A stretch of DNA of 64,000 bases from Escherichia coli (GTDB lineage Bacteria; Pseudomonadota; Gammaproteobacteria; Enterobacterales; Enterobacteriaceae): assembly GCF_041886205.1 (NCBI RefSeq), contig NZ_CP169030.1, one strand, 5' to 3'. A model generated the notes under the pieces. The model saw nothing but the letters and a program-made list of their open reading frames with translations. It was not told the origin of the DNA and did not search any database. How positions within the stretch are numbered: the stretch's first letter is position 1; each line of letters starts with the position of its first letter. The position numbers and the translations under genes are program-made. Positions 17,513 to 21,304 of the stretch are shown here, piece by piece.

Positions 17513-18253
17513 CTGCTACTCTAAAATAAAACAACACATGGGAGACTGTCTATTATTATTAATAACGAGTAACATTTGTTATTGCCATTTATGGTGCTCC
17601 CGGGATCAGTTTTAACCATAAGCAAGAAAATGTTTCTTTGAACGGTTAGACATCACAAATGAGCGTCTGCCAAAAGTTGATGTAGCGCTTGCGGAATGTG
17701 TTGAGATTATATAGGGAAAGAACTACGGGGAATTATTATTGCCAGGCTTTCTCCTATGAATTTTAGCCATATCAATAGACCTTTGCTCTCAGTAACGCAA
17801 AGAGAGCATCTTTACTGATTGAAGGTAGTCAAGCGACATATGGTCACTTATTTTCTCATGTGTCGCTTGACACTATCCTGAAGTTTTTTAAGTCGATTTA
17901 CGTCACCCAAAATGAAAAACTCCTTTGCATGAGTATTCATAATAATATCACAATGGTAAAGCTACATGACAGACATCTTAACTTAGTCAAGAGAGTACAT
18001 AACAACTTTGCTATTACATATATTCAGGGTTGTTTGTAGTGGTTCACAAAATCAGGACACTGGAATAACCTGTTTCCACTTTTCTTCATGTAAGCAAGGC
18101 GATAAACCACCATTGTTTGTATGAGGTCGATAAACGTTGTAATAACAATTTATCTACTGCTTTATATCGCGTACTGCATGACTAAAATCACCATAACTGA
18201 TCTTACCCAGCAATAGTGGACACGCGGCTAAGTGAGTAAACTCTCAGTCAGAG

Positions 18254-18562
18254 GTGACTCACATGACAAAAACAGTATCAACCAGTAAAAAACCCCGTAA
18301 ACAGCATTCGCCTGAATTTCGCAGTGAAGCCCTGAAGCTTGCTGAACGCATCGGTGTTACTGCCGCAGCCCGTGAACTCAGCCTGTATGAATCACAGCTC
18401 TACAACTGGCGCAGTAAACAGCAAAATCAGCAGACGTCTTCTGAACGTGAACTGGAGATGTCTACCGAGATTGCACGTCTCAAACGCCAGCTGGCAGAAC
18501 GGGATGAAGAGCTGGCTATCCTCCAAAAGGCCGCGACATACTTCGCGAAGCGCCTGAAATGA
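18254..18562 (+). CDS. insE: IS3 transposase OrfA
   Basis: 102-aa HTH/leucine-zipper protein typical of IS3 OrfA. Confidence 0.85.
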
Positions 18563-19425
18563 AGTATGTCTTTATTGAAAAACATCAGGCTGAGTTCAGC
18601 ATCAAAGCAATGTGCCGCGTGCTCCGGGTGGCCCGCAGCGGCTGGTATACGTGGTGTCAGCGGCGGACAAGGATAAGCACGCGTCAGCAGTTCCGCCAAC
18701 ACTGCGACAGCGTTGTCCTCGCGGCTTTTACCCGGTCAAAACAGCGTTACGGTGCCCCACGCCTGACGGATGAACTGCGTGCTCAGGGTTACCCCTTTAA
18801 CGTAAAAACCGTGGCGGCAAGCCTGCGCCGTCAGGGACTGAGGGCAAAGGCCTCCCGGAAGTTCAGCCCGGTCAGCTACCGCGCACACGGCCTGCCTGTG
18901 TCAGAAAATCTGTTGGAGCAGGATTTTTACGCCAGTGGCCCGAACCAGAAGTGGGCAGGAGACATCACGTACTTACGTACAGATGAAGGCTGGCTGTATC
19001 TGGCAGTGGTCATTGACCTGTGGTCACGTGCCGTTATTGGCTGGTCAATGTCGCCACGCATGACGGCGCAACTGGCCTGCGATGCCCTGCAGATGGCGCT
19101 GTGGCGGCGTAAGAGGCCCCGGAACGTTATCGTTCACACGGACCGTGGAGGCCAGTACTGTTCAGCAGATTATCAGGCGCAACTGAAGCGGCATAATCTG
19201 CGTGGAAGTATGAGCGCAAAAGGTTGCTGCTACGATAATGCCTGCGTGGAAAGCTTCTTTCATTCGCTGAAAGTGGAATGTATCCATGGAGAACACTTTA
19301 TCAGCCGGGAAATAATGCGGGCAACGGTGTTTAATTATATCGAATGTGATTACAATCGGTGGCGGCGGCACAGTTGGTGTGGCGGCCTCAGTCCGGAACA
19401 ATTTGAAAACCAGAACCTCGCTTAG
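18559..19425 (+). CDS. insF: IS3 transposase OrfB (DDE integrase; expressed by -1 frameshift with OrfA)
   Basis: 288 aa with DDE region; overlaps OrfA in -1 frame. Confidence 0.85.
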
Positions 19426-19455
19426 GCCTGTGTCCATATTACGTGGGTAGGATCA

Positions 19456-19660
19456 AACCACCCTTCGCAAGCCATTTACTTTTAAATCTGTGAAAGACTC
19501 TTCCCATCGGCGAATTATCCAGGTAATTCCCTCTGCGACTCATACTTTGCATCGTCTCATAACGGCAGAGTAAAATTTTGTATTTATTGCTTTTATATTG
19601 AACACCTTGATCTGAATGCAACATCAGGTGGCCATCACGCGGTTGTGTTTCCTGAGCACT
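19456..19660 (-). pseudogene. remnant of an IS3-family transposase OrfB C-terminus
   Basis: Translation contains HSDQGVQY and [18 protein letters not shown] motifs in compressed form; IS3 inserted into it. Confidence 0.4.
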
Positions 19661-19726
19661 ATGCAAGTAAACGGCTCAACAGAACAGTATTGATATTTAC
19701 TGAGCGGCCAGATCAACTTTTCAGGG

Positions 19727-21304
19727 TTACAGATCGCGTACCAGGTTTGCCGACCAGTCCTGGATATGTTCAATGCCGTAACACAGCCATTTTTCCAGCT
19801 CCACATTATTCAGACGGCATGTGCCGATCAGCGAGTACAGCACCGCCGCATGTTCGCCACCACTGCCGGAACCCGCGAAGAGCCAGTTCTTCCGGCCTAT
19901 GGCCACTCCCCGTAAGGCGTTCTCTGCGATGTTGTTGTCGATTTCCACCCAACCATTACTGCAGTACACGTTCCGAGCATCCCGCTACTGCAGCAGGTAT
20001 GCAAACGCTTTTGCCGTATCCGAGTGACGCGCCAGTGTTTTCATCTGAGTCTGTATCCAGTCGTACAGTGACTGCATCAGTGGCGCAGGTCTGGCTTTTC
20101 TTGCCGCCAGACGCTGTTCTGCTGAACAGCCCCGGACCGCAACCTCGATGGCATACAGTTCACTGATACGCTGCAGGGCTTCCGTGGTGACGTCGGTTGG
20201 CGCTCTTGCATGCACATCGTGGATTTTTCTCCGGGCATGGGCCATACACGCGGCTTCCGTTATTCTGCCTGATTCGTATAACGCCCGGTAGCCACCGTAA
20301 GCATCGGCTTGAAACACACCGCTGTAACCGGCCAGGTGATTTTGTGAATGGATACCTTTCCAGCAGGACTGTACGCGAACCAGACCGCCGGGGGCATCTC
20401 CGAGCCGGCATCACGATCATCACGGACGTAGCACCACTGCCGGACGGTTCGAGTTTTACCGGCCATCAGCACATACTGGCGCAGTATGTTATACAGCAGC
20501 TCCAGTAGTTCGCAACGGAACAGATCCAGCGTGGCACGCCTCAGCTACACGCCCTGGCGACGGTATATTTCTGACTCGCGGTATAATGGCAGATGGTCTG
20601 CATATTTCCCGGTGACTACATGGGCCTAAAGCCCCGGTCCGGAATAACTGCTGAAGGCTCAGGTGTCTGCACGATATAGTTGCACCGGCAACAGGCCTGT
20701 TTCGGGCGTTGTGTTTCGATAACCTTAAAGGTGCAGCTGATAAGCTCTAGCAGCTCTGACACATTACACCCCAGAGGGCTGAGCTCACCACCACAGGCCG
20801 GGCAGCATTCCTCTTCCGGCCGGATGACCCTGGCTTCATAGGGAAGTGAGGCTGGTAACGATTTACGGGCTGAAGACTGGCGCAGGGAAGATGGCAGTGC
20901 CGGGTCATATTGCTCACCAGTGTTTCTGCCATTTCCTCCTGAAGTGCGCTGATTCGCTCCTGTGCTTCCTGTATTTACCGTTCGATTTTTGCGCGAAGTT
21001 TTTCTGAGCTTTTACCGAACTGCATGCGCTGCAGTTTTGCAACCAGCGCCTTCAGCCGGTTGGTTTCGGAAGCATAAGTCGCCACCTGCGATGAGAGCAG
21101 GCGGTTGTATTCATCCATCTGGCAGATGGTGTCCTGTTGCTTCTTCAACCGTGCCAGCCACTGGCCTGCATCAACACCACTCTGGCGCAACGTCTGGCTG
21201 ATTGCCCGGCTTCGTAATTCAATTCTTTGTACATAAACAGGACGCTTCACCTGCGCGCAATAAACGGTACGGTGAACACCGAATAAATAACAAAGAATCC
21301 GCAC
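19727..21304 (-). pseudogene. IS66-family transposase (TnpC), fragmented by frameshifts
   Basis: Three minus-strand ORF pieces: N-terminal leucine-zipper part, middle part, and C-terminal part with GRKNWLFAGS motif. Confidence 0.6.

Follow-up and report, generated by a model that had tools for sequence, protein, structure and literature searches.

The IS pile on this F-type E. coli plasmid is mostly composed of dead elements nested in one another, together with one apparently live IS3. In the window, which is the whole 64-kb stretch of DNA that was analysed, the nest extends from about 17830 to 21498. The first-pass annotation had reported an IS graveyard of nested and decayed elements at 18198-21304. 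That description is correct and the nest is real, but its limits were too narrow, since the left one lies at about 17830 and the right one at 21465, or at 21498 with the adjoining dif-like site. The nesting is also deeper than was described. Two 5' fragments of the ISNCY/IS1202 family enclose all of the other parts. Five ISKpn37-like segments, collinear and in one orientation, are placed on either side of an IS66 remnant and of IS3, and the right terminal repeat of the IS66 remnant precisely abuts ISKpn37 position 883. Therefore, the elements are nested in one another. The GC content of the IS DNA is 50-56% against 30-32% in both flanks. The names of the elements were taken from the RefSeq/PGAP annotation of matching records, and RefSeq already marks the remnant pieces as pseudogenes in plasmid pC4101. 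The ISKpn37-like and IS66 pieces are not intact functional elements, because each lacks one end and none has an open transposase gene. Among 5,426 complete E. coli genomes, 38 carry the scaffold at 98-100% identity, as do about 60 plasmids. Nested dead ISs are routine on large plasmids, and this scaffold is already known from the reference F plasmid.

The intact IS3 occupies 18198-19455 on the plus strand (1258 bp). It has five mismatches to IS3a of F (99.6% identity). Its ends, as read from 5' to 3', are TGATCTTACCC... and ...GGGTAGGATCA, and its terminal inverted repeats are of the imperfect TG...CA type (TGATCTTACCCAGCAATAGTGGACAC... and, as the reverse complement, TGATCCTACCCACGTAATATGGACAC...). 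As in other members of the IS3 family, there is an overlapping pair of genes on the plus strand, both open: orfA (18263-18562, 99 aa) with a match to the HTH_Tnp_1 domain, and orfB (18559-19425, 288 aa) with matches to HTH_21, rve and rve_2. For the copy in pC4101, which is different by 2 nt, the PGAP annotation gives an intact transposase and a programmed frameshift. IS3 stands exactly where the first-pass annotation had placed it, and it is flanked by a target-site duplication, AAC, with the left copy at 18195-18197 and the right copy at 19456-19458. The empty site (L003) agrees with this assignment: in plasmid pJNU p1 (NZ_CP083264.1) both flanks are 100% identical to those of the window, a single AAC is present and IS3 is absent, so that removal of IS3 with one AAC rejoins the target. 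The insertion is polymorphic among near-identical plasmids. In a search of 72,556 plasmids and the 5,426 complete E. coli genomes, only pC4101 carried the same insertion, and it lacks about 156 bp (18042-18197) directly abutting the left end of this IS3 copy. The polymorphism and the adjacent deletion suggest indirectly that IS3 may still be active. The insertion and its empty site together provide a clean lineage marker for this plasmid group.

The DNA into which IS3 was inserted is an ISKpn37-like IS3-family remnant on the minus strand, and its reality was confirmed by two segments collinear with ISKpn37 on both sides of IS3. The segment at 18035-18197 corresponds to element positions 1091-1253 with 90.2% identity to the ISKpn37 copy in L008. 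It keeps an intact right terminal repeat (TGTAGTGGTTCACAAAATCAGGACAC) and has a premature stop (QWIN to Q*IN). The segment at 19456-19666 corresponds to positions 883-1093, the C-terminal half of the DDE domain, with 88.2% identity to the same copy and a match to rve. Further ISKpn37-like DNA was found at 21150-21357 on the minus strand, in three pieces of 90-94% identity (positions 553-614, 379-514 and 67-93). With the left terminal repeat (positions 1-66) also gone, only positions 67-93, 379-514, 553-614 and 883-1253 of the 1253 remain, and the pieces are labelled by PGAP as incomplete pseudogenes.

An ISCro1/IS679-like remnant of the IS66 family is located at 19667-21158 on the minus strand, with 86% identity to ISCro1 in L006. 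It retains a tnpC pseudogene and the right terminal repeat (GTAAACGGCTC at 19667), which was compared directly with ISCro1 in L006. It has lost the left end, tnpA, tnpB and ~35 nt from the start of tnpC, so that a remnant is present rather than a complete tnpA-tnpB-tnpC element between GTAAGCG-type repeats. The reported decayed IS66-family transposase is real. Its tnpC matches four Pfam domains (LZ_Tnp_IS66, zf-IS66, DDE_Tnp_IS66 and DDE_Tnp_IS66_C), and it carries deletions of 1, 13, 8, 1, 51 and 1 bp, five of them frameshifting besides the one of 51 bp, as well as premature stops. The corresponding piece in pC4101 has the PGAP note 'frameshifted; internal stop'. A part of the 14% divergence of tnpC from ISCro1 may reflect descent from a different IS66 relative rather than decay. 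The remnant ends at 21158 and not at 21304; homology to ISCro1 tnpB or tnpA was sought beyond 21158 and none was found, this stretch being ISKpn37-like.

The outermost parts of the nest are the two ISNCY/IS1202-family 5' fragments, both on the minus strand and forming direct repeats of each other. Fragment #1 (21355-21465) comprises the 5' UTR and 11 initial codons (MKAYGTEFFSM) behind an IRL-like end. It is 88.6% identical to L007 over 21355-21424, and its IRL region aligns with L007 and L010. Fragment #2, with approximate boundaries of 17830-18019, runs from an IRL-like end through the 5' UTR into the coding sequence, of which about the first 37 codons are left (MNTHAKEFFILGDVNRLKKLQD..., including an internal stop). 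It was detected by blastn and tblastn (E=7e-5). In blastn, annotated ISNCY transposase genes of ~628 plasmids match it with their 5' ends at 72-74% identity, and its position relative to the CDS was checked in L013. An unassigned spacer of 15 bp (18020-18034), read from the sequence, separates it from the right end of the ISKpn37-like remnant. Further transposase sequence was sought downstream of both fragments, and none was found past codon 11 (#1) or about codon 37 (#2). Of a complete element of ~1.5 kb, with a ~460-aa transposase and a direct repeat of 5-6 bp, only ~110 bp (#1) and ~190 bp (#2) of the 5' ends remain. In the 2014C-3075 plasmid, the same place is taken by an ISNCY copy of nearly full length that is frameshifted.

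Fragment #1 adjoins a putative dif/cer-like XerCD-type site, TAGGCGTACAA-TTTATT-TTATGTTAAAT, at 21471-21498 on the plus strand. It is the sole match in the window, against 0 expected by chance, and no second Xer-like site was found in the window with spacers of either 6 or 8 bp. The XerD arm is identical to that of E. coli dif at 11 of 11 positions, the dif sequence having been confirmed, and the central region is 6 bp long. The XerC-type arm is weak by comparison with dif (6/11), and it agrees at 8 of 11 positions with what we take to be the cer arm. The XerD arm is invariant in lineages in which the surrounding DNA is only ~81-83% identical or cannot be aligned. In the window, the IRL-like end (...CCTATACA) is followed by a 5-bp spacer, ACAAT (21466-21470), and then by the site. 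Thus the left end stands at the distance from the XerC arm (5-6 bp) described for Xer-site-targeting elements, with the transposase gene reading away from the site. The same geometry was found in L007, L010, L016 and L018, with a spacing of 5 bp in L007, L016 and L018, and L007 also has a near-perfect (4/5) 5-bp direct repeat. The arrangement of left end, 5 bp and XerC arm recurs in three diverged lineages as well as in unrelated Enterobacter and Salmonella plasmids. No XerD-like arm lies close to one of the ISNCY copies examined, that of a Citrobacter plasmid (L020).

The adjoining dif-like site with the targeting geometry of the IS1202 family gives a simple reason for the IS pile-up at this position in F-type plasmids, and Xer-site targeting may have seeded the nest. 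Specifically, we tentatively propose that the IS cluster of F-type plasmids was placed by a dif-like XerCD site that recruited IS1202-family elements, and that later ISs, and in one lineage ~10 kb of cargo, then used the remains of these elements as a neutral landing pad; this proposal is possible but still falls well short of being probable. No relevant description of a Xer site on F or IncF plasmids came up in a literature search. Should XerCD still bind the putative site, this site could have a further part in dimer resolution or module exchange of IncF plasmids.

For the nest as a whole, the anatomy, the IS3 insertion event, the decay and the conservation of the scaffold are direct observations. 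They are very probably the outcome of successive transposition into already dead DNA in an AT-rich region that an F-like (IncF) plasmid can do without, followed by trimming through small deletions. The order of the first four steps is deduced from the geometry only. At first, an IS1202/ISNCY-family element would have entered next to the site at 21471-21498, its left end turned towards this site and 5 bp away from the XerC-type arm, before the split of the three known backbone lineages; the second 5' fragment (~17830-18019), in the same orientation, looks older. Second, an ISKpn37-like IS3-family element would have landed between the two ISNCY fragments. Third, an ISCro1-like IS66 element would have entered orfB of the ISKpn37-like element at position 882/883. 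Fourth, a microhomology-mediated deletion would have removed 268 bp of ISKpn37 and, with them, the IS66 element from its left end through tnpA and tnpB to the first ~35 nt of tnpC. Two more internal pieces of ISKpn37, its left end and most of ISNCY #1 would also have been deleted, while point mutations brought stops and frameshifts. Microhomology of 3-10 bp is present at every deletion junction. The expected 8-bp duplication of the IS66 element and the repeats of the ISKpn37 and ISNCY insertions are deleted. Fifth, recently and in this lineage only, the intact IS3 entered the ISKpn37-like remnant with duplication of AAC. Live ISs would keep arriving because the dead pieces serve as a functionless, neutral landing pad. 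The IS3 could itself still transpose and make adjacent deletions.

The first-pass annotation had further regarded the cluster as a likely recombination scar joining an adhesin island and a bactofilin cluster of different origins; such a fusion would have come about by homologous recombination or through the ISs. The positional part of this claim holds, as the cluster does fill a variable spot between two conserved AT-rich modules: an autotransporter and a 231-aa ORF on the left and a bactofilin/EAL cluster on the right. Several joints have lost DNA, since three ends are gone: the left ends of ISKpn37 and IS66, and most of the two ISNCY elements. The inter-module region also varies by lineage, as shown by the ~10 kb of other cargo (katG, cytochrome b562 and a TIR-domain protein) in the 2014C-3075 plasmid, and modules could in principle be exchanged through the Xer-type site at the edge. 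However, different origins of the flanks are not supported. Their GC content is the same. Three lineages (F-type, pRHB41-C14_2 and the 2014C-3075 plasmid) carry both modules without a change of order or orientation, and left and right have diverged to a similar degree: the identities to the window are 87% and 83% in pRHB41-C14_2 and 88.5% and 81.6% in the 2014C-3075 plasmid, respectively. The two non-F lineages are thus diverged by 11-19% from the window, and the IS and cargo content between the modules is different in each lineage. An ISNCY-family remnant 5 bp from the dif-like site at the edge of the right module is common to all three. Therefore, the linkage of the modules is older than the nest of ISKpn37, ISCro1 and IS3. 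Moreover, the microhomology at every internal joint is typical of simple deletion. A relative with the two flanks directly abutting, with no IS DNA, was sought among 90 matching plasmids and none was seen, the closest still carrying other IS debris. Fusion of unrelated segments is thus an unlikely origin of the cluster. Sequential insertion with microhomology deletions would account for the anatomy with no inter-molecular join, and the nest site is, on the available sequences, best read as a variable slot and not a fusion point.

Two other explanations are highly improbable. In one, some remnant would be exapted and functional, or the scaffold would be kept by selection. The high conservation of the scaffold is in its favour, as is an open 109-aa ORF at 20975-21304 created by the in-frame fusion of ISKpn37-like 21150-21357 to the IS66 tnpC remnant. 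However, the level of conservation is the same as that of the surrounding plasmid backbone, relatives tolerate insertions of IS2, IS3 and IS21 and deletions of 156 bp and 774 bp inside the scaffold, and the ORF is a chance product of two deletions that is interrupted by IS3a in F. In the other, to which we give equally little credence, IS3 or the whole cluster would belong to a composite transposon or mobile unit carrying neighbouring genes, or the ISKpn37-like and ISCro1-like pieces would travel as one unit. Several E. coli chromosomes do have an ISCro1 copy beside an ISKpn37-like fragment, but IS3 and the remnant sequences are each single-copy within the 64-kb window, where a composite transposon calls for two copies. 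In the chromosomal joint of L015, the ISKpn37-like part stops elsewhere and an IS2 end fragment lies between the two; this joint therefore represents an independent nest rather than a shared unit.

Compared with the reference copies, the retained parts have a nucleotide identity of 88-94% to ISKpn37 (L008) and 86% to ISCro1 (L006), and in both cases the terminal repeat matches at the retained end. In contrast to the references, the window has fragments of the former and a fragment of the latter, each with one end missing and no open transposase gene. The ISNCY fragments resemble the ISAba32/ISAjo2 subgroup, including ISKpn21, in the left end 5 bp from the XerC arm, in the fixed orientation and in the evidence that a single site took up more than one member of the family. 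For the ISAba32 subgroup of the IS1202 family, to which ISKpn21 belongs, Xer-site targeting and the formation of tandem arrays have been published (bioRxiv 10.1101/2022.12.17.520857, in the main text of which the word 'Escherichia' is absent), and the same is given for the subgroup in PMC10132070. On the other hand, the window keeps 5' fragments only, its host is an E. coli IncF plasmid and its XerC-type arm is weak.

The classical F plasmid (NC_002483.1, ~14.3-20.1 kb) has the same scaffold with 99.4-100% identity (ISNCY fragments, ISKpn37-like pieces and IS66 tnpC pseudogene), likewise between autotransporter genes and the bactofilin/EAL cluster. In pC4101 of E. coli C41 (NZ_CP127254.1), the right IS3 junction is identical to that of the window, whereas the left AAC and most of the ISKpn37-like segment at 18035-18197 are gone. 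In other relatives, the scaffold has been entered by IS21 or IS2 or has suffered deletions. IS3-mediated integration of F has been described (PMC11148124). F is empty at 18197/18198, where the window has IS3. Instead, it carries IS2 at window position 19876/19877 with a 5-bp duplication, CCCGC (19872-19876), and IS3a at 21182/21183 in the opposite orientation with the duplication CTC (21180-21182), both of which are absent from the window. The IS2 and IS3a copies are the route by which classical F forms Hfr strains, and in chromosomal records the scaffold is broken exactly at these IS2 or IS3a positions. The IS3 of the window would likewise offer homology for RecA-dependent fusion with chromosomal IS3 copies, that is, Hfr-type integration. 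It may thus be a handle for fusion of the plasmid with chromosomes or other replicons, as IS3a and IS2 are for F.

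The window comes from an F-like IncF plasmid. From 9.5 to 27 kb it runs collinearly with classical F (NC_002483.1) at about 99% identity, and this collinearity extends to several E. coli plasmids of bovine and environmental origin. There, a cluster of insertion sequences sits between two AT-rich modules. The left module holds two autotransporter genes and an ORF of 231 aa, and the right one is a cluster of small ORFs including bactofilin and a LuxR-HTH/EAL gene. The GC content is 30–32% in either flank versus 50–56% inside 18–21 kb. All of the elements in the cluster belong to known kinds.

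An intact IS3 of 1258 bp was located at 18198–19455. It has exact ends (TGATCTTACCC... and ...GGGTAGGATCA) and AAC directly on either side, the duplication that the first-pass annotation had noted. It differs from IS3a of F at five positions (99.6% identity), and its OrfA (99 aa) and OrfB (288 aa) are both open, with the domains HTH_Tnp_1, HTH_21, rve and rve_2. The near-identical plasmid pJNU p1 (NZ_CP083264.1) matched window 17500–18197 and 19456–22000 at 100%. These matches share just 3 bp, one AAC, in pJNU p1; therefore, the IS3 target is uninterrupted there. A search of 72,556 plasmids and of 5,426 complete genomes of E. coli found the same insertion only in pC4101, a plasmid of E. coli C41 (NZ_CP127254.1), which indicates that the insertion is recent. 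The pC4101 copy differs from the window IS3 by 2 nt, and pC4101 lacks about 156 bp (18042–18197) touching the left end of IS3, with the right junction intact. Loss of DNA abutting an IS end is the usual mark of an IS-promoted adjacent deletion. The deletion in pC4101 is thus indirect evidence that the window IS3 may be active.

IS3 splits DNA that aligns collinearly with the 1253-bp element ISKpn37, as delimited in record L008, so the reading of IS3 as inserted in an IS3-family remnant held (88–90% identity). The segment at 18035–18197 corresponds to element positions 1091–1253 (90% identity) and keeps the right terminal repeat intact, TGTAGTGG..., and that at 19456–19666 corresponds to positions 883–1093 (88%). 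Exactly at 19667, adjoining ISKpn37 position 883, starts the right terminal repeat GTAAACGGCTC... of an IS66-family remnant (ISCro1: GTAAGCGACTC). This remnant covers 19667–21158 with 86% identity to ISCro1, the reference being a full 2.7-kb copy in record L006 that has an 8-bp duplication. Of the remnant's genes only tnpC is left, without its first ~35 nt; relative to ISCro1, tnpA, tnpB and the left end have also been lost. The tnpC remnant carries deletions of 1, 13, 8, 1, 51 and 1 bp, and its reference frame has four internal premature stop codons and an early end, in agreement with the decayed transposase first proposed. Pfam matches to LZ_Tnp_IS66, zf-IS66, DDE_Tnp_IS66 and DDE_Tnp_IS66_C were obtained, zf-IS66 and IS66_C being slightly under the gathering cut-offs.

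Beyond the IS66 piece, three further segments match ISKpn37 at 90–94% identity in unchanged orientation: 21150–21211 (element 553–614), 21205–21340 (379–514) and 21331–21357 (67–93, the start of orfA). Therefore, the IS66 element is itself nested in the IS3-family element. The left end of the latter (positions 1–66) is absent, and its C-terminal part contains a premature stop. The IS66 and IS3-family pieces are already RefSeq pseudogenes; in pC4101, both sides of the ISKpn37-like remnant are annotated as incomplete ISKpn37-family pseudogenes. The two parental sequences have 3–10 bp of microhomology in common at all four internal joints, namely ISCro1/ISKpn37 at 21150–21158, two deletions within ISKpn37, and ISKpn37/ISNCY at 21355–21357. 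Judged from these sequences, the joints look like ordinary illegitimate deletions. Separately, one sub-group of relatives, e.g. L011 (CP057252.1), has a 774-bp scaffold deletion (20580–21353), whose right endpoint is within 1–3 bp of the ISKpn37-like/ISNCY joint. The extent first assigned, 18198–21304, captured a real cluster, but the true bounds are about 17830–21498 and the IS66 part ends at 21158. The 109-aa ORF that starts at position 21304 arose by chance, with a piece of ISKpn37 OrfB fused in frame to the N-terminus of TnpC.

The first-pass annotation had read this graveyard as a recombination scar where segments of different origin were joined. The nested dead elements are real, but the linkage of the flanks argues against a fusion scar. 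When 3 kb from either flank was joined as one query against plasmids, 62 plasmids gave a single match spanning at least 80% of it; therefore, both flanks lie close together in them. Most are F-type and 97–100% identical, with a gap of 2.1 kb for the bare scaffold or 3.4 kb with one IS3; in a few the gap has another size. In a second lineage, pRHB41-C14_2, the left module is 87% and the right 83% identical. Between them lie an IS256-like stretch (by eye, from translation) and a remnant of the same ISNCY element as in the window, but longer (~61 codons); no ISKpn37 or IS66 DNA was found in this slot. The 2014C-3075 plasmid represents a third lineage, with the modules (left 88.5%, right 81.6%) ~10 kb apart. 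Its slot (L016, NZ_CP027448.1 35500–49500) holds katG, cytochrome b562 and a TIR-domain gene as cargo, with IS66 and IS3 pseudogenes at the bounds of this cargo, and an almost full-length but frameshifted ISNCY gene whose left end is again 5 bp from a Xer-type site. Since both modules and ISNCY at a Xer-type site occur in three lineages, they were neighbours before the lineages diverged, and the joining of foreign segments does not account for the cluster. Since divergence, the slot has received different contents in each lineage, and the cluster is best regarded as a variable slot or landing pad.

The 1769-aa autotransporter gene has internal ~1.26-kb repeats, mutually ~88% identical (11892–13527); its homologues measure 4938–5310 nt by plasmid, and repeat number or length varies among relatives. 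The LuxR-HTH/EAL gene, unbroken in F and pJNU p1, is broken by a 1310-bp IS3-family element (24699–26008, ends TGAACCGCCCCGGG..., 3-bp duplication ATC), which from its length and ends we take to be IS629/IS1203-like. Two intI1-type integron integrase genes of 337 aa each (49032–50045 and 53248–54261) bracket an AT-rich tet(M) (50969–52903), followed by a Tn3-family transposase gene (55050–58016); this resistance region is not in F. At 58568–63470, the plasmid also bears tcuC and tcuA, genes for tricarballylate utilisation, along with a LysR-type regulator. Upstream are an IS5-family transposase gene (39695–40663) and a PAS-domain chemoreceptor gene (41756–43333).

The scaffold is already present in the reference F plasmid, where it carries two live elements and the gap between the flanks is too wide for one joined match. 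IS2 lies inside the dead tnpC with the 5-bp duplication CCCGC (window 19872–19876), and IS3a lies in the ISKpn37-like piece with the 3-bp duplication CTC (21180–21182), in orientation opposite to the window IS3. In several chromosomal records (E. coli genome hits H260–H263 and H270–H272), the scaffold stops exactly at the position of IS3a (21184) or IS2 (19871). These breaks fit F integrated via IS2 or IS3a, Hfr-type, and F integration mediated by IS3 has been described (PMC11148124). The window IS3 would supply the same kind of integration homology.

The right edge of the cluster is a putative dif/cer-like XerCD-type site at 21471–21498 (TAGGCGTACAA-TTTATT-TTATGTTAAAT). The window has a single match to this pattern, where chance predicts 0–0.1. 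The right arm of the site is identical to the XerD arm in the confirmed E. coli dif sequence and is unchanged across backbone lineages in which the adjacent DNA is ~81–83% identical or unalignable. A literature search found no description of a XerCD-type site on F. Five bp before the site ends ISNCY fragment #1. Its part at 21355–21424, the 5' UTR and first 11 codons, matches the 5' end of a transposase gene annotated as ISNCY-family (plasmid record L007) at 88.6% identity, and its left terminal repeat region runs on to 21465 by alignment with L007 and L010, another ISNCY copy. Fragment #2, a more diverged 5' piece (~17830–18019, 72–74% identity) in the same orientation, forms a direct repeat with fragment #1 (21355–21465) and may have arrived there earlier, in tandem at one and the same site. 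Fragment #2 contains a pair of 15-nt hairpin arms (17828–17842/17857–17871), and the 15 bp that separate this fragment from the ISKpn37-like right end (18020–18034, ATATTCAGGGTTGTT) have no identifiable match. The succession of left end, 5 bp and XerC-type arm is also seen at intact ISNCY copies on unrelated plasmids of Enterobacter and Salmonella; the L007 copy has a 4/5 direct repeat. Among the copies examined, one, on a Citrobacter plasmid (L020), has no Xer-type site nearby, and two others are cut off by Tn3-family ends. The anchoring of the cluster at the dif-like site by an IS1202-family remnant is the sole mildly new point. ISKpn21 and the other elements of the ISAba32/ISAjo2 subgroup (IS1202 family) insert in a fixed orientation that places their left end 5–6 bp from the XerC arm, and one element after another has been documented to arrive in tandem at a single site (bioRxiv 10.1101/2022.12.17.520857; PMC10132070). 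The arrangement of ISNCY left end, 5 bp and XerC-type arm seen here matches this published behaviour.
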